This document shows positions 19,914 through 30,646 of a stretch of DNA of 64,000 bases, piece by piece. The notes beneath the pieces were generated by a model. That model saw only the letters and a program-made list of their open reading frames with translations. It was not told the DNA's origin and did not search any database. The stretch comes from Candidatus Latescibacterota bacterium (GTDB lineage: Bacteria; Latescibacterota; UBA2968; GCA-2709665): assembly GCA_965226795.1 (NCBI GenBank), contig CBDDDZ010000005.1, forward strand, positions 1,024,001 through 1,088,000, written 5' to 3'. How positions within the stretch are numbered: the first letter of the stretch is position 1; each line of letters opens with the position of its first letter. A program made the translations under genes and the position numbers.

Positions 19914-20942
19914 TCAACCGGCGGGACCGGAACACATCCGGCAGACGAGTTTTGTAAGGGTGGCGGCGGGTGCACGAGAACGGGACTTCAGGCGGTTATC
20001 CGCGTCCAGGAGCGAGTCGTAAGCGTGCCACAGGTCCTGGTCATCGAAACGATCCGCCTGTTCGAGATAGTTGGAAAGAAAGAAAGGAGGCACCTTCAGT
20101 TTTCCCGCCAGTTCTGCCCGGGGCAGCCCCTGATTCCGGAGCCAGCGAGCCTTACGAAGAATTCCGATATGCCGTATGAGCATCGCGACAACAGCCACCG
20201 GGTTGTCGCCCCGTTCGAGAAGGTGGTGTAGAACCGCCAGGGCATCGCCGGCTCTCCGATTTCCCACGGCATCCGCAAGTTCGAAAACCGTCGCGCTTCG
20301 TAAATCGCCAGCCACCTGGATGACGTCGTCTCGCGTGATGGCATCCCGTCCGTTTGCATATATAGCCAGTTTCTCGAGTTCGCTAACCAGTTCGCCCGGA
20401 TTCGGGCCGACGCCGAGGTGAAGCAGGTGTGCGGCATCAGGTTCAATCCGTTTATTCAGGGCAGCCGCCCGTCTACGAATCCACTCCGGGAGTTCGCTCT
20501 CGTAAGGTGGCTTGAATTCTACCGCAACGGCGTTTTTTCGCAACGCGACGCTGAGTTTCTTGCGACCGTCCAATTTGTCCGCGGTAATAACAAGGACAGT
20601 GGATCCAACGGGTTTGTCAATAAGGGGAAGGAGAGTTCGCGCGTCGGTGTCCCGCAACCGTTCCACTCGTTTGACAACGACAACCCGGCGTGACGCCATC
20701 ATCGGAAAGGCGGTTGCACGGCCGACGGCGTCGGCCACATCCATATCCTCGCCGCGGAAGATATCCAGGTTGAAGGCTCGTAATGTGGGATCGACAGCAG
20801 CGTCGACAAGGGCTTTCAGGCTTTCTTCCTTGCTGACGTTCTCAGTTCCGTGCATCAAATACAGCGGCGCGAATTCGCCCCCTTGAATCTGCGCGGTCAG
20901 CCTATCCTGCGGGTTGCCGGATTTAGCTCTGGATTTGGCCAC
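19914..20942 (-). CDS. holA: DNA polymerase III subunit delta
   Basis: PLYLMHGTE, FPMMASRRVVVV, ELEKL, VFELADAV, D..LK; probable GTG start at 20942. Confidence 0.9.
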   Translation of the reverse strand: MAKSRAKSGNPQDRLTAQIQGGEFAPLYLMHGTENVSKEESLKALVDAAVDPTLRAFNLDIFRGEDMDVADAVGRATAFPMMASRRVVVVKRVERLRDTDARTLLPLIDKPVGSTVLVITADKLDGRKKLSVALRKNAVAVEFKPPYESELPEWIRRRAAALNKRIEPDAAHLLHLGVGPNPGELVSELEKLAIYANGRDAITRDDVIQVAGDLRSATVFELADAVGNRRAGDALAVLHHLLERGDNPVAVVAMLIRHIGILRKARWLRNQGLPRAELAGKLKVPPFFLSNYLEQADRFDDQDLWHAYDSLLDADNRLKSRSRAPAATLTKLVCRMCSGPAG

Positions 20943-21031
20943 GGTCGTGGTAGATGGAAAAGATGCGAAAGATCTGAAAACATGCACGGAACTACTCTGC
21001 CAGGGAGCACTACACCGGCCCAAAGGGAGCG

Positions 21032-21223
21032 CTAACCGTCCAGGTCGCGAAATTCAGCATCCCTGATCCGATTCTTGTTGATGTCCCAGGATGGCTTCTT
21101 GCCGGGTGGACGTGACCCGTCTTTCTGGGGGGAGACCCATCGAAGCGAGGAGCGCAGAACATCCCGAAGTACGCGGTATACGAGACCCAGCAATAAGCCG
21201 AAAAGGAAAATGCGCAACAACAT
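21032..21223 (-). CDS. Small hypothetical membrane protein
   Basis: 63 aa, N-terminal TM helix, C-terminal IRDAEFRDL; GGGAG RBS; fits between purM and holA. Confidence 0.6.
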   Translation of the reverse strand: MLLRIFLFGLLLGLVYRVLRDVLRSSLRWVSPQKDGSRPPGKKPSWDINKNRIRDAEFRDLDG

Positions 21224-21235
21224 AGCGTACTCCCG

Positions 21236-22279
21236 CTAAAGGATTTGAACACCGGAACCCGGGTCGTTGACAACTTCACCCACGACGTAGCCTGTCTCTC
21301 CGTTTCGTCTCAACTGTTCGATCGCTCTTTCAGCCTGACTGGAAGGGACGACAAGCACCAGGCCCAGACCCATATTGAACACACGAAACATCTCGTCGAT
21401 TTCAATGTCGTCGTCCACCTTCTGTAACAGGTTGAATACAGGCAACTCGGGCCAGGTTCCCCGGAAAACACGTGCGCCCAGCCCATCCGGAAGGGTGCGC
21501 GGCAGGTTGTCGACAAGTCCTCCGCCGGTGATGTGGGCCATCCCCCGTACCTGCACGGCTTCCATAAGACTGAAGGCCGATGATACGTAACTCCGGTGAG
21601 GGGCCAGCAGGGCATCGCCGATTGTACCGCCGAGTTCACCCAGGTGGGTGTCGACGGTCCATCCTGCGGTTTGGAAGAAAAGTTTGCGCGCCAGGGCATA
21701 ACCGTTGGTGTGGAGGCCGTACGACGGCAGACCGATGAGCTTGTCGCCCGGCTGTACCCGGGAGCCATCCAGAATTTCTTCCCGGTTGACAATGCCGACG
21801 ATAGTACCCGCCAGGTCGTATTCGCCGTCGGCATAGAAATCCGCCATTTCCGCCATTTCCCCGCCCAGAAGCGCGCAACCGCAGGCTTTACATCCGTTTG
21901 CGATTCCCTCGATGACGGCCTCGGCCACGACGGTGTCGTGTTTCCCCATGGCCAGGTAGTCCATAAAAAAAAGGGGGCGCGCCCCTTGTACAAGTATGTC
22001 GTTGGCGCAGTGGGCCACAAGGTCCGCTCCGACCGTATTGTGGACACCCGTCATAAAAGCAATTTTGAGCTTCGTGCCGACACCATCCGTTCCTGCCACC
22101 AGGACGGGATCCCGGTAAGCCTCCCACTGCGGCGCAAAAAGGCCGCCGAATCCGCCAATGTCCGTGAGTACTTCAGGGCCGAATGTTGATCGTACCAGGC
22201 TGGAGATGCCTTTCTTGGTCCGACTGGCGCTCTCGATATCCACGCCGGCGGCGGTGTATGCGCCTGACTTTCCCTTCAT
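21236..22279 (-). CDS. purM: Phosphoribosylformylglycinamidine cyclo-ligase
   Basis: YTAAGVDI, DGVGTK, GGEMAEM, GLHTNG, HITGGG, FNMG. Confidence 0.97.
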   Translation of the reverse strand: MKGKSGAYTAAGVDIESASRTKKGISSLVRSTFGPEVLTDIGGFGGLFAPQWEAYRDPVLVAGTDGVGTKLKIAFMTGVHNTVGADLVAHCANDILVQGARPLFFMDYLAMGKHDTVVAEAVIEGIANGCKACGCALLGGEMAEMADFYADGEYDLAGTIVGIVNREEILDGSRVQPGDKLIGLPSYGLHTNGYALARKLFFQTAGWTVDTHLGELGGTIGDALLAPHRSYVSSAFSLMEAVQVRGMAHITGGGLVDNLPRTLPDGLGARVFRGTWPELPVFNLLQKVDDDIEIDEMFRVFNMGLGLVLVVPSSQAERAIEQLRRNGETGYVVGEVVNDPGSGVQIL

Positions 22280-22382
22280 AAGGTTACCTTCCATACTTCG
22301 TTTGTAAATTCATAAGGAAGGGGGACAGGGTAAAATGCAGGATTTTCAATCCACCTTACGATAGTGCGACGTTACGCCGGGC

Positions 22383-23348
22383 TCATTCGACTGCGCCGCA
22401 TTTCGACGGTGGGCAATGGGCGCGTTCGTCCGACCTGTTCGCATCGTCTCCCGGTGCAGCACACCCGGCACCGGAGGCCGCAACAATCTCTTCGGCCACA
22501 CGCGCGGCCCGACCGGCTGCTCCAACGTCATGCACGCGTACAATGTGAGCCCCGGCGGCCACGGAGAAACCCACCGCGGCCAGCGTGCCTTCCAGCCTTT
22601 CTTCCGGCGGAAGATCCAGCCGGGCTCCAATGAATTTTTTTCGCGACGGGCCCACCAGCAGAGGGCAGCCGAGATCATGGAGTTCCTCAAGCCGGGCGAG
22701 AATTTCAAAGTTATGGGTATTTCGTTTTCCGAATCCCAGACCGGGGTCAATCAGAATCCGGCCGGGAGCGATGCCGGCGTTGAGAGCTGAGGCCAGGCGA
22801 ACGTCGAGAAAATTGAAAATTTCGCGTATCACGTTGTGATACGACGGTTTGAACTGCATGGTTCGGGGCGTGCCCTTCATGTGCATAAGGACAACCGCGG
22901 CGCCCGATTGTGCGACAGTTTCGGCCATGAGAGGGTCGAAACGCATAGCGCTTATATCGTTGACGATGGATGCGCCCGACTGTATCGCTTTTTGGGCGAC
23001 AGCCGCTTTTGTGGTGTCGGCGGAAATGATCAGGTCTGTTCTGGATGCAATTTCTTCGATCACCGGCGCCGTGCGGCGGATTTCCTCTTCCGTTGAAACG
23101 GCAAGGGCTCCCGCACCGTACGTCCCTGCCGGACGGGTGGATTCGCCGCCCACGTCGATGATATCCGCACCCTCTTCAGCCATCCGTAGCGCACGGGCAA
23201 CGGCCTGTCGCGGTTCGAAATAACGTCCACCGTCGGCAAACGAATCGGGTGTGACGTTAAGAATCCCCATTATCAGGGTTCGTGAGCCCAGGTGGAGGAT
23301 GTTGCCCCGGCAGTCGAGCTGGTGCGTGGGGGAGGTTATGTATCGCAT
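22383..23348 (-). CDS. folP: Dihydropteroate synthase
   Basis: MGILNVTPDSF, GGESTRP, DPGLGFGK, SRKKFIG, RVHDV. Start uncertain. Confidence 0.96.
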   Translation of the reverse strand: MRYITSPTHQLDCRGNILHLGSRTLIMGILNVTPDSFADGGRYFEPRQAVARALRMAEEGADIIDVGGESTRPAGTYGAGALAVSTEEEIRRTAPVIEEIASRTDLIISADTTKAAVAQKAIQSGASIVNDISAMRFDPLMAETVAQSGAAVVLMHMKGTPRTMQFKPSYHNVIREIFNFLDVRLASALNAGIAPGRILIDPGLGFGKRNTHNFEILARLEELHDLGCPLLVGPSRKKFIGARLDLPPEERLEGTLAAVGFSVAAGAHIVRVHDVGAAGRAARVAEEIVAASGAGCAAPGDDANRSDERAHCPPSKCGAVE

Positions 23349-23426
23349 CGGAAATGTGGACATGCAAAAGGGATGGCAAAATGACACGGCTTTTTACCAT
23401 CCCTTCCTGAAATTTAAGTAAAGCGT

Positions 23427-25574
23427 TTACTCTTCGTTATCGGATGCTTCCTGCGATTCGGCTGTCTGTTCGCCCGCGGAAGGCGCGTCCGGCTCCTCGA
23501 CATCGGCGGCTGCATCCTGCCTGCGCCGTCCGTTTTGAGATTGGGACGGTTCAGATGGTTTTTGCAGCTTTTCTCCAGCCAGAATACGGTCGAGTTGGGA
23601 GTCATCCAGCACTTCGAACTCCAGAAGCGCATCCGCCAGAATGTGGACCTGAGCGATATTCTCACGCAGCAGTGTTTCCGCCCGTTCTTCCGCGGCGAAG
23701 ACGAAGTTGCGGATTTCGTCGTCTATGACCTGTGAGACTTTTTCACTGAAATCCCGGCGCTGGGCCAATTCACGACCGAGGAAGATCTCATCCTGTCTGT
23801 TTCCGTAGGATACGGGACCCAATTCCTCGCTCATGCCCCAGTCGCAGATCATCCGGCGCGCCAGGTCGGTGGCCATCTTATAGTCCTGCTGACCGCCGCT
23901 GGAAACTTCCCCGAAGACGATTTTTTCCGCCACCCGGCCACCCAACGCATAAGTGAGAACGGCGTCGCTGTAGCTCTTGGAATAGTTGTGGCGTTCGTCG
24001 ATGGGTAGATACGTGGTCAACCCGAGGGATTGGCCGCGGGGAATAATGGTGACCTTATGCACCGGATCGGCCTCGGGAACGAGTTTGGCCACCAGAGCAT
24101 GACCGATTTCGTGGTATGCCGTACGCTTCTTTTCCGAGTCGGAAATGACCAGACTACGCCTTTCTACGCCCATAATGACCTTGTCTTTGGCATTCTCGAA
24201 GTCATCCATAATCACAGAGGGCCGGTCGTACCTGGAGGCGAGCAATGCGGCCTCGTTGACCAGGTTTTCCAGGTCGGCCTGGGAAAAGCCGGGCGTAGCC
24301 CGTGCGAGAACGGTCAGGTCGACGTCCTTGTCCAACGGGGTATTCCGGATGTGGACTTTCAGCACACCCTCCCGGCCCTTGACGTCGGGCCGGTCCACAA
24401 CCACCTGTCGGTCGAAGCGGCCCGGACGCAGCAGGGCCGGATCGAGGACGTCGGGCCGGTTGGTGGCGGCAATGAGGATGACCCCCTCCTTGGAGTCAAA
24501 TCCGTCCATTTCAACCAGCAACTGGTTGAGCGTCTGCTCCCGCTCGTCGTGCCCCCCCCCGATGCCGGCGCCCCGGTGTCGCCCCACAGCGTCTATTTCG
24601 TCTATGAAGATGATGCAGGGTGCATTGGCTTTTCCCTGTTCGAACAGGTCGCGAACACGGGAGGCGCCAACGCCGACGAACATTTCGACAAAGTCGGAGC
24701 CGCTCATGCTGTAGAATGGTACGTCGGCCTCGCCTGCCACCGCTTTGGCCATATACGTCTTGCCGGTACCCGGCGGTCCGACAAGGAGCACACCCTTCGG
24801 GATTCGGCCGCCGAGCCGCTGGAATTTTCGGGGATCCTTTAGGTACTCGATGATCTCCTGGAGTTCCTGTTTGGCCTCGTCCGATCCGGCAACTTCTTTA
24901 AAGGTGACCTTTGGGCGGTCTTCGGAAAACAGCTTCGCCCTGCTCTTGCCGAAGCTGAACGCACCCTTGGCACCTCCCTGCATCTGACGGAAGATGAACA
25001 GCCAGAGGCCGACGAAGAGCAGCCACGGCAGGAAGTTAAAGAAGACCTTCAACCAGTCGAAGGGTTTTTCCTCGAAGCGGAAGTCGATTTCGTATTTTTC
25101 CCAGTCGGCGATTGCCTCTTCGCCGATGACGCCCAGGTTGACCACAAAGGTGCGATAGGCCTGCTGCTCGCCCCGACTGCTCGTATATTCGGGTTCGCGC
25201 AATGTGCCGTGAAAATCGCTGTCGATGATGATGGCGCTTTCGATCTTGCCCTGTTTCATCAGGGTCCGGTACTCCTTGTAGCTGAGTACGACGTCACCCG
25301 AGCCGGTACTGCTTCCGAAGAAGCGGGTTGCGAAGAGGGCGACAAGTACAAAAAAGACCCAGAATGCAAGCGTTTTTGAGCGCCGCCGCCACTCATGGCC
25401 GTCGTTTTCGGGCGTTGACCCGGGCTCACGGTTTTGCCGTGGGCGCTGTCGGCTTCGCGGGGCCTCCGACGCTTCCGGGTTGTCGTCAGATTCAGGTTTC
25501 AGCTCCGGTACGGGCGGCGATTTTTCTTTCCGCTCCGCAGCCGGGGTTTCTTCCTGGTCTTTACTTTCAGCCAT
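23427..25574 (-). CDS. ftsH: ATP-dependent zinc metalloprotease FtsH
   Basis: Two TM helices, [16 protein letters not shown] zinc motif. Confidence 0.98.
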
Positions 25575-25597
25575 AAAAACCGCCTTGACAATAATAC

Positions 25598-27022
25598 TCA
25601 AGAGGAGGCGATTACGCCTCCCCAGCCACCCTTGAAGGTGATGTCCAGCACCGTTTTCGCCCGATGCGTGACGGCTGTGGACTGGGCCGTGCGCAAGCCG
25701 ACCACCCAGAGAATGGCCTGACCGCCCAGTAGCAGCGGAATTTCGTCGCGCAACGGTCTGGGAATCTTCAGGTTGATAAACAGGTCGCTGATTTTTTGTG
25801 TTCCATTCAGGCCGAACGGTCTGAATCGATCCGCCCGCCGCCGATTTCTCAGAGTCAGCCCGCCGGGAAGTGCATCCCAGTCGAAACAGGCGTGATACGG
25901 ATCGGACGATAGATCGTCCCTTCGCACCTGGCTGGCCGGCCGGATCCTCGTCTCCAGAACCGCGCCGATTTCCGCTATTTCGGTGATGCCCGGAACGGCG
26001 ACCTCGGTCGAGAAAAACGGCGTTGGCCGACTAAGGATCAGCCATGGACTCGAACGATGAGCGGAGATATCGGAAGACACCTGAACCACGCCTTCAGGCG
26101 TCAAACGCAGGGCTTCCATGCGACTGACACTCTGCCCATCAAGCGCACGCGCACAGCCACGAAGACGGAAAAAAGCCGTTTTGAAGATTCGACGCTGAAG
26201 TGCTATATGATAACCGAAAACGGCGTTTTCATCAAGGATTATTTTTCGCCTGCTCTCATAACGCAAGGCCTTTCGATACGCCGATTCCGCCTGCTGGCCG
26301 AGCAGTTGATCTTCCCCCTGGATGATCTCCGCGGACCTGGCCAGGGCCGCTTCAATGGCTGGGTTGTATGCTGAAGCGATCTCCGGAAGAAGATGATGCC
26401 GGATCCGGTTTCGAAGGAAGCGGACGTCGGCGTTGGAAATGTCGTGGCGCACCTGCAGGTTTCGGTGTTCGACATAAGCCTGTATCTGTTGTCGCGAGAC
26501 CGCCAGGAGGGGACGGATCCAGAGACCGTCGCGGATCGGGCGGATCGCGCCGAGTCCGGTTGGACCGGCGCCGCGGACCAACCGTATCAATACGGTTTCG
26601 GCCTGATCGCTGCGGGTATGGCCCAAAGCGATCCGGGAAGCGCCGGTGACGCGCTGGACCCTTTTGAGAAATGCGAGGCGCACGTCACGCGCAGTTTGTT
26701 CAAGAGAACACCCTGCGGGCAGGATCGCCTCTTCGGAGAAGCACGGGAGATCCCTGGTGGCGGCGAGGTCCGTCACAAATTGTTGGTCGGCATCCGACGC
26801 CGGGCCCCTGAGTTTATGGTTGAGGTGGGCGACGTAGAGCGTGATGTCGAGAGACTTCCGAAGCCGGAATAGCACATCCAGCAGCGATACCGAATCCGGG
26901 CCGCCCGATACGCCGATCACTATGCCGTGGCCGGGCCGGATCAATACGTGCCGGTCAATGTACGATCGCATGGCCGGAAGCAGGTCAGGTGTGTCGGAAA
27001 TGGGTCCGGCGTGAGGTTCCAT
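25598..27022 (-). CDS. tilS: tRNA(Ile)-lysidine synthetase
   Basis: SGGPDS, HLNHKLR, GHTRSDQAET, RPLL, RNRIR, TilS C-terminal domain. Start uncertain. Confidence 0.95.
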   Translation of the reverse strand: MEPHAGPISDTPDLLPAMRSYIDRHVLIRPGHGIVIGVSGGPDSVSLLDVLFRLRKSLDITLYVAHLNHKLRGPASDADQQFVTDLAATRDLPCFSEEAILPAGCSLEQTARDVRLAFLKRVQRVTGASRIALGHTRSDQAETVLIRLVRGAGPTGLGAIRPIRDGLWIRPLLAVSRQQIQAYVEHRNLQVRHDISNADVRFLRNRIRHHLLPEIASAYNPAIEAALARSAEIIQGEDQLLGQQAESAYRKALRYESRRKIILDENAVFGYHIALQRRIFKTAFFRLRGCARALDGQSVSRMEALRLTPEGVVQVSSDISAHRSSPWLILSRPTPFFSTEVAVPGITEIAEIGAVLETRIRPASQVRRDDLSSDPYHACFDWDALPGGLTLRNRRRADRFRPFGLNGTQKISDLFINLKIPRPLRDEIPLLLGGQAILWVVGLRTAQSTAVTHRAKTVLDITFKGGWGGVIASS

Positions 27023-27312
27023 GGGTGGAAATCCTGAATCTGCAGAAACGAATGGGCAGGGGGCTTCGCCTTTTTTGAGACGCAACGCCCGGTAAACGCC
27101 TTACGCCCCTCCGCCCGGCGCAGAGTTCCCGGTCACCCCGGGCTAAGAATCTGGAATTGGGATGTTGTATTGTCTATCTGTTTATTAGACGCTGGATAAA
27201 TCGGTTCGGTTTCTGAAAAACCGGACTCGGGATATCGAATCGAGCCTTCGATTGCTTCCTATTCAGCCGTGCCGGATAGGAGATAGACGACTAATGTCAC
27301 CGAAGCTAAGGA

Positions 27313-27350
27313 ACGAAAAAGACACGCTGAATTCAGCGTGTCTTTTTCGT
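27313..27350. terminator. Perfect 38-bp palindrome, bidirectional intrinsic terminator-like
   Basis: ACGAAAAAGACACGCTGAATTCAGCGTGTCTTTTTCGT, 17 nt downstream of the selenoprotein stop, with A/T tracts on both sides. Confidence 0.8.
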
Positions 27351-27367: not shown

Positions 27368-28354
27368 TCAGGGCACGCGTTTGCCGAAGTTCTTTGCGAA
27401 TTCCAAAAAGTCCGGGAAGTCGACCAGACCGTTCCCGTTCAGGTCGTAGGTAATGTTGTTTGTGTTGAAGGCCTGGGCAAAGGCGATGAAGTCTCTGAAC
27501 CCGATTTCGCCGTCACCGTCGAAGTCGGCCCGGGCGTCGCCGTAGACAATGATGGCCGTTCCCGACAGGGTGACGGTAACGCTGCTGTTTTCAGGATCGT
27601 TGCTCAGGATGGTAACGGTGCCGGAGAAGGGGCCGGCATCGGCGGGCGTGAACGTGATTTCGACCGTCGCGCTGTCGCCCGACGCAATCAGTAGCTCGGT
27701 TTGACTGACGGAGGTCCCGTCGAGGTCGGATTGTATGCTGGTAATGTCGAGGTCGTTCCCGCCGGTATTGTGCACCACAAGGGTGAGGGTGTGAGACACT
27801 CCCGCCGGAACGTCCTCACCGAAGTCGAGTGATGGGTTGGGGAGCGTGATAGCTGGCGCCTGAGGGGTTAGCAATTCCCGGATACGCGCCGCCGTGGCGC
27901 TAAGACCGGAAGTCGTGCGCCCCCCGATGTGGCGGATGATCCCTGCTCGGTCCGCGACCAGCAACGTGTGGACGCCGCGGGAGGTCTGAATCTTGCCGCT
28001 GGCCTGCAACAGGAGCGGGAATGTGACCTTGGTCGTTGCTTGAAAGCCTTCCAGTTGCGACTTGTTGCCATTATATAGGTCAAGCCCCAGGACCGTTACG
28101 CCATCGTCCTGGAACGCCTTCCAGATCTGCTGTTCTATGGACGGACCCGCCCCTATGCATGTGGGTCAGTTATGGCCCAGAAAATAGAGGACTAAGACAC
28201 TGCCCTTGTAATTCGCCGGGGTGTAGGTTTTTCCATCCAACCCCGTAAGCGAGAAACTGGGTACCGCGTCGCCGACTTCCTGTGCTTCCGCGGGTCCCAA
28301 CGGGTAGAGTCCCAGGAGCAGCAGGAACACGACGCACGTAGCGATTCGACTCAT
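27368..28354 (-). CDS. Exported selenoprotein: redoxin (TlpA/AhpC-TSA-like, UxxC) + Ig-like (ASH/choice-of-anchor D-like) + twin EF-hand/dockerin-like domain, 328 aa
   Basis: AAAGGAGG RBS and signal peptide MSRIAT...AEA; in-frame TGA (28166-28168) in FLGHN-U-PTC; the frame stays open and redoxin-like (IWKAFQDDGVTVLGLD...TFPLL) into ORF 27368..28009; SECIS-like hairpin follows the TGA. Confidence 0.85.
28136..28165 (-). promoter_or_regulatory. Bacterial SECIS element
   Basis: After UGA: CCCACAUGCAUAG-GGGCG-GGUC-CGUCC; stem starts ~13 nt after UGA with a GGUC apical loop, as in E. coli fdhF. Confidence 0.75.
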
Positions 28355-28388
28355 CGCAATCCTCCTTTGAGAGAGTGTGTGGTCTGCG

Positions 28389-29972
28389 TCAGAAATGGGT
28401 TTTGAAACGCATTTCAAGACCGTTGAATGGCAGCACCTGATAGCATGTACCCGAAGTACATGCGACGCCGCCACGCCTGCGGCCGGCAAAAACGAGGGCT
28501 TCGTATCGATCGAGAAAGCGGACGTTCAGATTGACCGCCAACCAGGTGCGCGTCCCGGTCTCGATCCCATCCGACGTTGCGCCATCGTCCACTTCAAACG
28601 GATCGTCCGTGCGGTCCAGAACGAGGGCGGCGCCCACGCCGGACGGATGCTGGAATGAGAACTGGGTAAAGACATCCAAGAACGCCGGTTCGTTTCGTGG
28701 TAGCCTGGCCGCGCGCCGAACCTGCAGATCGACACCCACGACAGATCCGCCGGGTGTAATGGATTCGACCGCTGTGCCAGCGGTTCTGTGTTTCCCGATC
28801 CCCTTCAGTTCGTTTTTTCCCCAGTCGACGAACAGGTTGATTGAGATTGCGTGGCCCCGATCTTCGGACGGTAGGTCGACGTCCACGCCTAAGTACCGCT
28901 CGTTGAAGGTTTTCTCGAAGCCGGGCGCCAGCTCGTTCTCTCCCTTGCTTATGTTGGCCGTCAGCGTGCCCAGGCCGAATAGCGTATAAGTGGCTTCCGC
29001 CTGATAGCCCTTTTCGGTATCGGCAAGCACGGCGTGGGTAGATCTGTTGAGTAGCACGGCCGAATGTTCACGAACCAGGGATGGGGGATCGTTGAAACTG
29101 AAGGCGAAATTCTGATAGTCCTTGTATTCCAGGCTCAGGCCCAGGTTGGAAATACCGGAGTTGGCGGAAAGATAGATGGCGCTTCCGTCCACGTGAATGT
29201 CTTTCAGCCCGGCGTATTCGGCGTAGACAGCCGCGTAGGCGTCCGGCAGACCGGCTGCTTCTAATGCCGGAGCCATATCGAGTTCCAGGAATCCGGACCA
29301 TGTGAGGGTGGAGTCGAGCCTCCCGGCGTGATGGCTGACGGCGGTTACACCCGTTTTGATCGGGTTGGTGGGACGCAGCGAGATCTCGCCTCCGAGAAGC
29401 CAGTTGTCACGTCGCGGTACATCACGAAGCGGATTACCCACCCGCACCGCAGGCGGAACGTCACCCAATACGGGTCGTCCGATCAGGGCTCTGGCCTCGG
29501 TCCGCGGCCCCGCCCAGGTGGCTATGCCGCCCTCCAGGTCTCGCGATGGCGAATAGCGACGCCGGTATTGAGCGCTCTCCAGTATTACCCCCGGGAGATC
29601 GAAGGCCCTGAGCGTGATTCCCCGGCCCAGGATGGCGTAGTAGTTGCCCGTAACCAGTTCGGTGGGTCCGTTTGTCCATCGCAGGTGCTTCTGGGCAATA
29701 TGAACCACTCGGTATTCAACCTGCGACAGGCGCGAGCCGGGACCGATGTTGCGCCATGTGTTGAAAATTTCGGCCCGGAAACCGGCCTGGATCCCGTGCT
29801 GGATGTAGTCGACATCAAACTGTTCGTAAAGGTTGGAAACCGCAAGCGAATCCACGCCCGGTACCCGCCCGCGCTGCAGTTCGGTCAGGCTGGAAGCTGT
29901 AACCTGTGCTGCGGCGCGGTCGGCCATAAGGACAAGAAAAAGCGTCGCCAGTCTATTTATCGGCACGCGCAT
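28389..29972 (-). CDS. DUF6029-like outer-membrane beta-barrel with C-terminal Cys pair
   Basis: Signal peptide, GNYYAILGRGITLR, LEYKDY, C-terminal RRRGGVACTSGTCYQVLPFNGLEMRFKTHF ending in Phe. Confidence 0.75.
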   Translation of the reverse strand: MRVPINRLATLFLVLMADRAAAQVTASSLTELQRGRVPGVDSLAVSNLYEQFDVDYIQHGIQAGFRAEIFNTWRNIGPGSRLSQVEYRVVHIAQKHLRWTNGPTELVTGNYYAILGRGITLRAFDLPGVILESAQYRRRYSPSRDLEGGIATWAGPRTEARALIGRPVLGDVPPAVRVGNPLRDVPRRDNWLLGGEISLRPTNPIKTGVTAVSHHAGRLDSTLTWSGFLELDMAPALEAAGLPDAYAAVYAEYAGLKDIHVDGSAIYLSANSGISNLGLSLEYKDYQNFAFSFNDPPSLVREHSAVLLNRSTHAVLADTEKGYQAEATYTLFGLGTLTANISKGENELAPGFEKTFNERYLGVDVDLPSEDRGHAISINLFVDWGKNELKGIGKHRTAGTAVESITPGGSVVGVDLQVRRAARLPRNEPAFLDVFTQFSFQHPSGVGAALVLDRTDDPFEVDDGATSDGIETGTRTWLAVNLNVRFLDRYEALVFAGRRRGGVACTSGTCYQVLPFNGLEMRFKTHF

Positions 29973-30489
29973 CGGCGTTTGCCTCGTCGTCTCCGGGCTT
30001 GGAAAAGAGCGACTCTACTGCGGCCAACAACGCATCGGCATGTTTCGAATTGTATCCGACCTGCCTGAGCGCGATCTCGCCATTCTGCGTGATCAACAGC
30101 GTGGTTGGCAGGACATTGACCTGCATCCGCCGCATCACGGCGCTGTCGGAGTCGAGTGCGATTGGGAAGCTGACCTTTCGCGCCCGGAGAAAGGGTTTCA
30201 CCCTGTTCTGCCCGCGTGGCCCGTCCACGTTGACGCCAAGAACCGTGAGTCCGGATTTGCCGTATTTCTCGTGAATCTTCTGAAGCTTGGGCATCGCCTT
30301 GACGCAGGGCTTGCAATAAGTTGCCCAGAAATCCAGAAGTACGGGTCCTTTCGTGAGCAGGGCTTTGAGGTTGACCCGTTCGCCCTGCAGGTTCCGAAGG
30401 TTGAAGTCGGGCGCGGTGGCGGCATGTGTGGAAACGTCGCCGAGGGCGATCGCAAAGAATATAATAAACAATACGCGATTCAATTTCAT
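29953..30489 (-). CDS. TlpA-family periplasmic thiol-disulfide oxidoreductase
   Basis: Signal peptide, APDFNL, DFWATYCKPC, VLPTT cis-Pro loop. Confidence 0.92.
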   Translation of the reverse strand: MKLNRVLFIIFFAIALGDVSTHAATAPDFNLRNLQGERVNLKALLTKGPVLLDFWATYCKPCVKAMPKLQKIHEKYGKSGLTVLGVNVDGPRGQNRVKPFLRARKVSFPIALDSDSAVMRRMQVNVLPTTLLITQNGEIALRQVGYNSKHADALLAAVESLFSKPGDDEANADARADK

Positions 30490-30586
30490 GGGTAAAATCT
30501 CTTCGCTGGACTGCGCTGGGATAAGTGCAATGTAATTTATGCGTTAGATGCCGTGACGTCGCCGGGGTTTCAGGCCCGGGCCTCCC

Positions 30587-30646
30587 CGATTCGACGCAAA
30601 TTGCGTCGAATCGCTTAACAATAACCGAAAACTACCGCCATATCAA
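30587..30646 (-). promoter_or_regulatory. Sigma70-like promoter with 27-bp palindrome at the predicted TSS
   Basis: Minus strand TTGATA (30646-30641), 17 bp, TATTGT (30623-30618); palindrome CGATTCGACGCAA-A-TTGCGTCGAATCG at 30587-30613. Confidence 0.55.

Follow-up and report, generated by a model that had tools for sequence, protein, structure and literature searches.

A window of 64,000 nucleotides, the whole stretch of DNA that was analysed, contains two open reading frames (28166..28489 and 27368..28009) separated by one TGA. This raises the question of whether both belong to a single gene that is translated through the TGA and, if so, what the resulting protein does and with which partners. 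The preliminary description of this locus had proposed an exported multidomain selenoprotein, and the ORF coordinates bear out that the two ORFs share one frame. Read through, the frame runs on the minus strand from the ATG at 28354 over 328 codons to the stop TGA at 27370-27368. It has a single internal TGA, at codon 63 within VLYFLGHN-U-PTC, and then stays open for 265 codons. The Pfam AhpC-TSA match spans codon 63, in agreement with the claim that the TGA takes the first-Cys position of a thioredoxin-fold motif, and the Pfam search of the read-through protein recovered the three proposed parts (redoxin, Ig-like domain and EF-hand/dockerin-like tail). The strong ribosome-binding site was confirmed as AGGAGG 6 nt ahead of the ATG, and export through a signal peptide held up, with a cleavage site judged by eye. 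As foreseen for standard gene callers, the databases contain only a truncated call of 213 aa (P0006). On sequence grounds, the gene cut in two by annotation very likely encodes one exported selenium-containing redox enzyme. The features of the locus are collected in Table 1.

Table 1. Features of the redoxin locus, in positions of the window
Feature	Position	Strand	Basis
Exported UxxC redoxin gene, 328 aa: signal peptide 1-24, redoxin, Ig stalk, dockerin-like tail	27368..28354	-	sequence, Pfam, NCBIfam
In-frame TGA, codon 63, predicted selenocysteine of U63-P-T-C66	28166..28168	-	sequence, homologues, other runs
Predicted SECIS hairpin of bacterial type, with a stem of 5 bp and a GGUC loop that begins 18 nt past the TGA	28139..28152	-	folding, homologues; loop shared with selD
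Shine-Dalgarno AGGAGG, 6-nt spacer to the redoxin ATG	28361..28366	-	sequence
Likely cleavable signal peptide, cut between A-E-A and Q	28283..28354	-	judged by eye
Thioredoxin-fold redoxin domain, Pfam AhpC-TSA, aa 27-142, without the cis-Pro of TlpA-type proteins	27929..28276	-	Pfam 55.9 bits, cut-off 26
Ig-like domain, choice-of-anchor D / HYDIN-VesB type, aa 169-265, likely stalk	27560..27850	-	Pfam 52.7 bits, cut-off 25.5
Double calcium-loop dockerin-like tail, aa 275-323, likely surface anchor	27386..27532	-	EF-hand_1 27 bits, cut-off 25.4
DUF6029 gene (527 aa), product predicted to be an outer-membrane beta-barrel of 24 strands with a C-terminal Phe	28389..29972	-	Pfam, AlphaFold model
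Conserved C505-T-S-G-T-C510, the only two Cys of DUF6029, in the last predicted extracellular loop	28443..28460	-	alignment, model
TlpA/ResA-like periplasmic reductase gene, 178 aa, C59-K-P-C62	29953..30489	-	Pfam, NCBIfam
Likely intrinsic terminator after the redoxin stop: 17-bp perfect hairpin with A and T tracts	27313..27350	.	-27.6 kcal/mol, z -9.5
Sigma-70-like consensus match upstream of the TlpA gene	30618..30646	-	chance level: 3 found, 1.8 expected

Searches of the genome (5.41 Mb, 5 contigs, 95.9% complete) found all four genes whose presence the preliminary description had proposed to check: selA, selB and selD scored above the TIGRFAM cut-offs and were accompanied by tRNA-Sec (selC). 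selA, selB and tRNA-Sec formed one cluster (C5:2494849-2498371), and selD (C4:335792-336715) was itself a selenoprotein of the C-x-U form, with its own in-frame TGA followed by a GGUC-loop hairpin. Homologues with Cys or a conserved TGA at codon 63 had also been anticipated. Among 38 aligned redoxin domains, which came from the 30 best loci of a 61-genome search and included the window's own, this position carried TGA in 36, TGT in 2 and TGG in none. Cys stood at the UGA position also in P0019, P0043, P0044 and 5 further loci. TGA was kept at one position across three families and in other phyla, with Cys and never Trp as the alternative. Assembly error had been a further concern, and contigs of four other runs from three studies showed no difference at 28166-28168 (in one of them, X12, codon 63 lies only 7 bases from the contig end). 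Contigs near-identical to this locus were also present in a sponge metagenome run. The TGA in 36 of 38 domains, unchanged in other runs, is therefore explained neither by chance nor by an assembly error. The opposite reading, which takes the TGA for a genuine stop, a Trp codon, a lesion in a pseudogene or an error of assembly, finds some support in a downstream hairpin that is not unusually stable, but it conflicts with this conservation, with the agreement of the other runs, with the long open frame after the TGA, with a sole tRNA-Trp whose CCA anticodon reads UGG and with the fact that the gene itself ends in TGA. Its probability seems close to negligible, and Trp recoding and a pseudogene were rejected on codon conservation, the tRNA-Trp anticodon, the open frame and the other runs. 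Residue 63 is, by prediction from sequence, almost certainly selenocysteine, as supported by the complete selABCD set, the restriction of codon 63 to TGA or TGT and the absence of variants in other runs.

The hairpin behind the TGA was evaluated separately. With a loop start at 15-19 nt (a range picked after seeing the data) and an energy of at most -3, it was present in 54 of 62 distinct sequences of Sec type and in 2 of 8 of Cys type (one of the eight being TlpA-like); among TlpA sequences it occurred in 1 of 69, and behind the genuine TGA stops of long ORFs in 125 of 1858. In 15 orthologues, four of the five four-fold sites in hairpin codons were invariant, as against 3 of 17 elsewhere. The accessible part of PMC13188914 gives a geometry model for the bacterial SECIS (loop of 3-9 nt, stem of 4-16 bp, G in the first two loop positions, spacing of 16-37 nt), and the window's hairpin, with its 4-nt GGUC loop, 5 bp and 18 nt, lies within these limits. 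Its free energy was -7.0 kcal/mol in isolation and -7.6 for the 38-nt stretch, which is borderline against a criterion of at most -7.5, and longer stretches fold into competing structures. When 38-79 nt after the TGA were folded freely, stability was not above that of shuffles (z 0.78 to -1.53), so that the case for a SECIS rests on position and conservation. As in bacterial selenoproteins generally, the UGA is in frame inside a conserved domain and the frame is open beyond it.

Bacterial UxxC selenoproteins listed in the accessible portions of PMC13188914 and PMC2398784 include Prx-like thiol:disulfide oxidoreductases (PF00578), redoxins (PF08534) and GOS_C. The window's protein has a PF00578 domain with UxxC, as the Prx-like selenoproteins do; as far as these portions describe the Prx-like and redoxin types, it shares their Pfam domains above cut-off, the UxxC and the SECIS layout, and it differs in adding a signal peptide, an Ig stalk and a dockerin-like tail (a T9SS tail in relatives), in the G-[HY]-x-U motif of its family and in being tied to an outer-membrane barrel. 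Term searches of the accessible text of both papers returned no such architecture or cassette, and six 4-letter family motifs, searched in four supplement files of PMC2398784, gave no redoxin match, only a trypsin-like family. No NCBIfam selenoprotein model reached its cut-off on the read-through protein, where 'choice-of-anchor D' was the only model above cut-off; the OS_HP2 selenoprotein model (NF041425) scored 29.8 bits (cut-off 100), and the TGA lies in the redoxin domain, not in a DUF1573 domain. When the whole genome was scanned for UxxC or CxxU followed by a hairpin, most of the 40 rows returned were shadow-frame noise, and the scan was set aside. Elsewhere in the genome, a second AhpC/TSA-like frame at C4:882826 (-) has an in-frame TGA at the first-Cys position (F-F-R-G-T-W-U); it is without a resolving Cys and internally duplicated, and may be a selenoprotein or a decaying gene.

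TlpA/ResA/CcmG reductases are defined by a W-x-x-W-C-x-x-C motif and a cis-Pro loop, and peroxiredoxins by a P-x-x-x-T/S-x-x-C motif and a catalytic Arg. The redoxin falls outside the first class, having G-H-N-U as its motif and 43.7 bits on the ResA model (cut-off 170), and its sequence is without the peroxiredoxin motif, with Prx models far below cut-off. By pattern-based scoring, cis-Pro was missing in 59 of 60 scored Sec-type domains, and Pro was present in 55 of 65 TlpA proteins. Given the missing cis-Pro, the redoxin may not be a general protein-disulfide reductase and, given also the missing peroxiredoxin motif, its substrate may be narrow or small. No Omp28 or NF045500 match was found for it at E 0.01, and an ESM Atlas search returned generic AhpC/TSA clusters only. 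A single-sequence AlphaFold model of the read-through protein was discarded (pLDDT 47.5).

The proposed fusion to an adhesion module was not supported. Ig copy number ranged from 0 to more than 6 in homologues, which is stalk-like rather than adhesin-like, and the tail is a genome-wide module, its profile matching 85 ORFs of the genome, 56 of them C-terminally. The adhesin reading was rejected on both counts, and the Ig part is, judged from these sequences, more likely a stalk. Two homologues (L043 and L044) have very long Ig stalks, with open frames of 1417 and 1695 codons. The tail consists of two calcium-binding loop plus helix repeats at aa 276-323. It scored 16.9 bits on Dockerin_1 (PF00404), below the cut-off of 22.9, and 28.7 against a cut-off of 29 on the GC-type dockerin model NF041540, on which the orthologue P0019 reached 32.9. 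With the dockerin-cohesin systems (NF041540; cellulosomal type I), it shares the two calcium-loop/helix repeats, the occurrence on many secreted proteins and the presence of cohesins in the genome; it differs from them in scores at or below cut-offs, in a shorter spacing, in a diderm host and in cohesin proteins that carry T9SS signals. Many other copies of the tail directly follow a signal peptide, and the secreted proteins that bear the module are highly varied. One tail-bearing ORF of 415 codons occurs with the same start, end and score on two contigs (C1:29505-30749 and C3:111913-113157), by duplication or redundant assembly.

Export to 'periplasm or surface', as put forward initially, could be narrowed to a probable surface location. 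Among 61 redoxin domains classified by pattern, the C-terminus was T9SS-CTD-like in 27, dockerin-like in 26 and cut or unclear in 8, and the redoxin is probably exported to the cell surface. SprA and 9 T9SS CTDs are encoded in the genome, and two frames that carry a CTD also contain cohesin domains; from this we infer dockerin-cohesin anchoring on T9SS-exported scaffolds. The tail sequence suggests that the protein may be anchored by such a pairing. The two frames with cohesin and a T9SS C-terminal signal, C5:1500217-1505106 (+) and C5:1737197-1738003 (-), are candidate surface scaffolds for proteins with the tail. The window's redoxin has no T9SS signal itself, and the need of tagged proteins for some route across the outer membrane counts against the reading favoured below.

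The redoxin is the last gene of an operon. The TlpA stop overlaps the DUF6029 start by 20 nt, and the redoxin starts 34 nt past the DUF6029 stop. The putative terminator was absent from the terminator-scan listing. Contigs of RNA runs cover the operon, in X8 as one contig (27476-30590) and in X3 in two (27376-30564). Both runs come from one study, DNA carry-over is possible and a contig shows no transcript, so we do not claim co-transcription. The periplasmic partner resembles the reductases ResA and TlpA (NCBIfam, below their cut-offs), and a DsbD with N-terminal, membrane and C-terminal Cys pairs is present in the genome. Past the terminator, the window continues with a housekeeping run at 19914-27085 (-), comprising tilS (Pfam) and then genes like ftsH, folP, purM and holA (named by eye). 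At 35260-36043 (+), it contains what we take to be formylglycine-generating-enzyme-like motifs, in a gene apparently split over two frames.

The AlphaFold model of DUF6029 (pLDDT 88.4, 24 strands counted) is a barrel throughout residues 22 to 526, and none of its loops exceeds 34 aa. Its nearest folds were the pores FimD (Z 18.9, rmsd 4.8) and PapC (Z 18.2, rmsd 5.4), with MtrB 6r2q at rank 29. Chaperone-usher ushers are defined by a plug and by N-terminal and C-terminal chaperone-binding domains. The modelled barrel is, like FimD and PapC, a 24-strand pore, but it is only 8-10% identical to them, has neither plug nor periplasmic domains and shows no sequence match; no solved sequence relative of the barrel was found. 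Its Cys pair lies on a hairpin in the loop preceding the last strand and would be extracellular, an inside/outside assignment that rests on strand parity. C-x4-C occurred within the last 45 residues of 199 of 216 DUF6029 homologues, and 175 of the 216 have exactly two Cys; most of the 17 homologues without it look cut or frameshifted, and one full-length protein (P0228) lacks the pair. The pair aligns and is invariant also in a distant barrel clade. A plasmid search with a DUF6029 protein and a PF19494 search in a control set of 14 named genomes gave no match, and an ESM Atlas search with the barrel returned DUF6029 clusters only. In the accessible part of PMC9603273, polysaccharide export is suggested for DUF6029 from HHpred likeness; no other functional suggestion was found in the literature accessible to us.

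To determine how constant this association is, barrel loci were collected from genomes (75 distinct, from the best 80 of 307 confirmed). A TlpA motif within 1 kb and the C-x-x-G-x-C were present in 75/75, and a redoxin of the window's family lay within 6 kb of the barrel in 52 (47 with the U form, 5 with the C form only). The remaining loci comprised 22 of family f2 and one at a contig end. The trio was spread through Latescibacterota and further phyla, with records named Eisenbacteria and Neomarinimicrobiota among its loci, and both gene order and orientation varied. Among 151 genomes of the phylum, 87 had redoxin and barrel, 57 neither, 4 the redoxin only and 3 the barrel only, counts in which kin are not independent, many assemblies are incomplete and linked genes vanish together. 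A PF19494 search of these genomes was too weak (77 matches, missing the present genome at E 1e-5) and was replaced by our own alignment. One of the four genomes with a redoxin and no barrel is 95% complete (G042), and at locus L233 the gene stands by itself. All 20 genomes of genus g6 have redoxin and barrel, unlinked in the loci examined.

The third position of the cassette is more variable. In one genome (G071), two Omp28 genes with a T9SS CTD precede TlpA and DUF6029. The distant barrel clade, whose named members are Ignavibacteria, was represented by 80 metagenome loci (best 80 of 175). TlpA was matched in 61 of these, and in 34 of the 36 with long flanks. The gene next to the barrel had CxxC in 58 of 68 loci, 12 having been dropped for short flanks, and 57 of these 58 neighbours carried a lipobox followed by acidic residues. 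All eight neighbours that were scanned matched Omp28, 7 above cut-off. K-(D/E)2 or Q-A-(D/E)2 is a published export signal (PMC5080379, accessible part); the acidic residues of the Omp28-type lipoproteins do not match it exactly and are only suggestive. Taken together with the redoxins and their tails, the Omp28-CTD genes and the Omp28 lipoproteins place two thioredoxin-fold families and three anchor kinds in the third slot. The redoxin is the third member of a conserved operon of TlpA, DUF6029 and an exported thioredoxin-fold protein, a context absent from the preliminary description; redoxin and Omp28 replace each other at its third place, where three surface anchors are exchanged as well. 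In the metagenome loci L153-L155, L213 and L214, the gene behind the barrel resembles ccmB (one of them was scanned) and not an Omp28 lipoprotein.

The complex prediction used the barrel of locus L078 together with the Cys-type redoxin domain found there; barrel and redoxin domain are 55% and 57% identical to those of the window. The pair scored 0.71 (runs 0.72, 0.57 and 0.71) and the best of 3 controls 0.00. Among solved complexes 116 of 157 attain the pass mark, as do 2 of 215 mismatched pairs; the L078 pair was folded with our own alignments, for which this calibration is rough. The docking runs agreed in at least 80% of contacts, with a partner pLDDT of at least 81. The 31 confident barrel contacts were all on loops L6-L11 or on outer strand halves, and the redoxin side of the interface included residues flanking CxxC and a conserved N-G-S loop. 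The model supports docking of the redoxin on the outer face of the barrel, as a prediction that shows neither binding nor electron transfer. The barrel Cys pair and the two Cys of the redoxin were absent from the confident contacts, and for this reason we only infer the electron relay. The docking prediction and the swaps of anchor and family support a physical link between redoxin and barrel but lend no support to electron transfer.

Another possibility is that the redoxin is a self-standing envelope selenoprotein that acts as an antioxidant in the periplasm or at the surface and takes its electrons directly from TlpA or small thiols, while its neighbours are co-regulated and form no relay. 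Unlinked and barrel-less redoxin copies exist, and TlpA could reduce a periplasmic partner directly, as in the DsbD/ScsB pathways. This would, however, leave aside that the trio survives reshuffling and even replacement of its third gene by a different thioredoxin-fold family, that the L078 complex passes with outer-face contacts only and that three anchor kinds point to the surface; we regard it as improbable. Alternatively, the barrel could be an export pore or docking platform, with a structural or gating Cys pair and a TlpA that keeps the cargo reduced before export. Its 24 strands recall the usher pores FimD and PapC, the predicted docking at the outer mouth suits either role and a redoxin without a T9SS signal needs some exit route; P. 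gingivalis PorA, which is FimH-like, is surface-delivered without T9SS machinery according to the accessible part of PMC7712824. Yet the third protein of other lineages has its own route (T9SS CTD or lipobox), 84 further tail-bearing ORFs in the genome would also need export and the DUF6029 model is without the usher plug and the periplasmic chaperone-binding domains. Moreover, TlpA stays within 1 kb of the barrel in all 75 loci, even where the redoxin has moved away, which ties it to the barrel and not to a cargo. An export pore or docking platform appears unlikely, if somewhat less so than a stand-alone enzyme.

The reading that we favour is a surface selenocysteine redoxin docked on the DUF6029 barrel and kept reduced by TlpA through the barrel Cys pair, a proposal whose chances we consider evenly balanced. 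SelB would read the hairpin and insert Sec63. The protein would then leave by the Sec pathway and be anchored at the surface by its dockerin-like tail, perhaps held by cohesin proteins bearing a type IX secretion signal; the Ig domain would serve as a stalk. There, the active-site helix and the N-G-S loop face of the redoxin are predicted to bind barrel loops L6-L11. Electrons could pass from cytoplasmic thioredoxin to DsbD, TlpA, barrel C505/C510, redoxin U63/C66 and finally a substrate outside the cell, for which extracellular oxidants or the oxidised thiols of surface proteins are the likeliest candidates. This path is the least certain step; a relay from TlpA through the barrel Cys pair to the redoxin may be true or false with about equal probability, and the outer-loop pair could also be a plain structural disulfide. 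Broader still, and with chances a little short of even, TlpA, DUF6029 and an exported CxxC/UxxC enzyme might form a heme-free thiol-disulfide relay across the outer membrane, spread across FCB-group bacteria, with DUF6029 as a 24-strand conduit and the selenoprotein as surface terminal enzyme, dockerin-tagged onto T9SS-exported cohesin scaffolds. The same parts could also run in reverse, with electrons flowing inward through the barrel as the module forms or reshuffles disulfides of surface proteins. Thiol relays are chemically reversible, and HBP35 was reported to complement an E. coli dsbA mutant (cited in the accessible part of PMC2907840), but recombinant HBP35 reduces insulin (same part of PMC2907840), the periplasmic partner is like the ResA/TlpA reductases (below cut-offs) and DsbD is present. 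An oxidising or isomerising module is, in our view, very improbable.

DsbD/CcdA/ScsB to TlpA/ResA/CcmG are reducing pathways. They share with the proposed relay the passage of thiol-disulfide exchange through the Cys pair of a membrane protein to a thioredoxin-fold enzyme; they are alpha-helical, lie in the inner membrane and end in the periplasm, whereas here a beta-barrel would span the outer membrane. MtrAB/MtrC are porin-cytochrome conduits with hemes stacked inside the barrel. A beta-barrel linking a periplasmic donor and a surface reductase is common to both, but this module is without CxxCH motifs and has only thiol/selenol pairs. To our knowledge, periplasmic reducing pathways end at the outer membrane, though surface thioredoxins such as HBP35 exist. 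HBP35 of Porphyromonas gingivalis is on the surface and has thioredoxin activity (PMC2907840, accessible passages); these passages are silent on how such proteins are re-reduced, and we found no account of it. Like HBP35 and the Omp28-related proteins (including the selenoprotein GOS_C / NF045500), the window's redoxin is an exported thioredoxin-fold CxxC/UxxC protein with a C-terminal anchor. It belongs to a different thioredoxin-fold family and works like them without being a member, and Omp28-type genes fill the third slot of the same cassette in other lineages. In P. gingivalis, PG2172 is PorA, PG2173 Omp28, PG2174 uncharacterised and PG2175 a thioredoxin-domain protein (accessible parts of PMC13744359 and PMC4335976). 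No published description of a cassette of TlpA, DUF6029 and redoxin/Omp28 was found in literature outside subscription papers, and the redoxin-barrel cassette may be an undescribed thiol relay across the outer membrane. If true, such a relay would be an outer-membrane counterpart of DsbD. The cassette is a concrete candidate for re-reducing surface thioredoxins and would give DUF6029 a first candidate function. It also points to an entire exported selenoprotein family whose members are wrongly annotated as 'choice-of-anchor D' fragments, and to a lineage that swaps T9SS, lipoprotein and dockerin-like anchors at one functional slot.

Several variants of the cassette were observed. In G038, the whole cassette was duplicated (L053 and L054), and both redoxin copies were frame-changed shortly after the active site. 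Tandem arrays mixing Sec and Cys paralogues were present in G020 (L063/L103) and G018 (L066/L078); the Cys copy in G020 retained a hairpin of 5 bp closed by a GGCC loop, which suggests that Sec was replaced by Cys recently. G157 and G158 (L136 and L141) had retained selA, yet their cassette redoxin uses Cys. Finally, the cassette around the second barrel copy of G017 (L060) was divergent: it contained two TlpA-like genes and encoded a long protein in which a UxxC redoxin lies near the C-terminus, before the tail.
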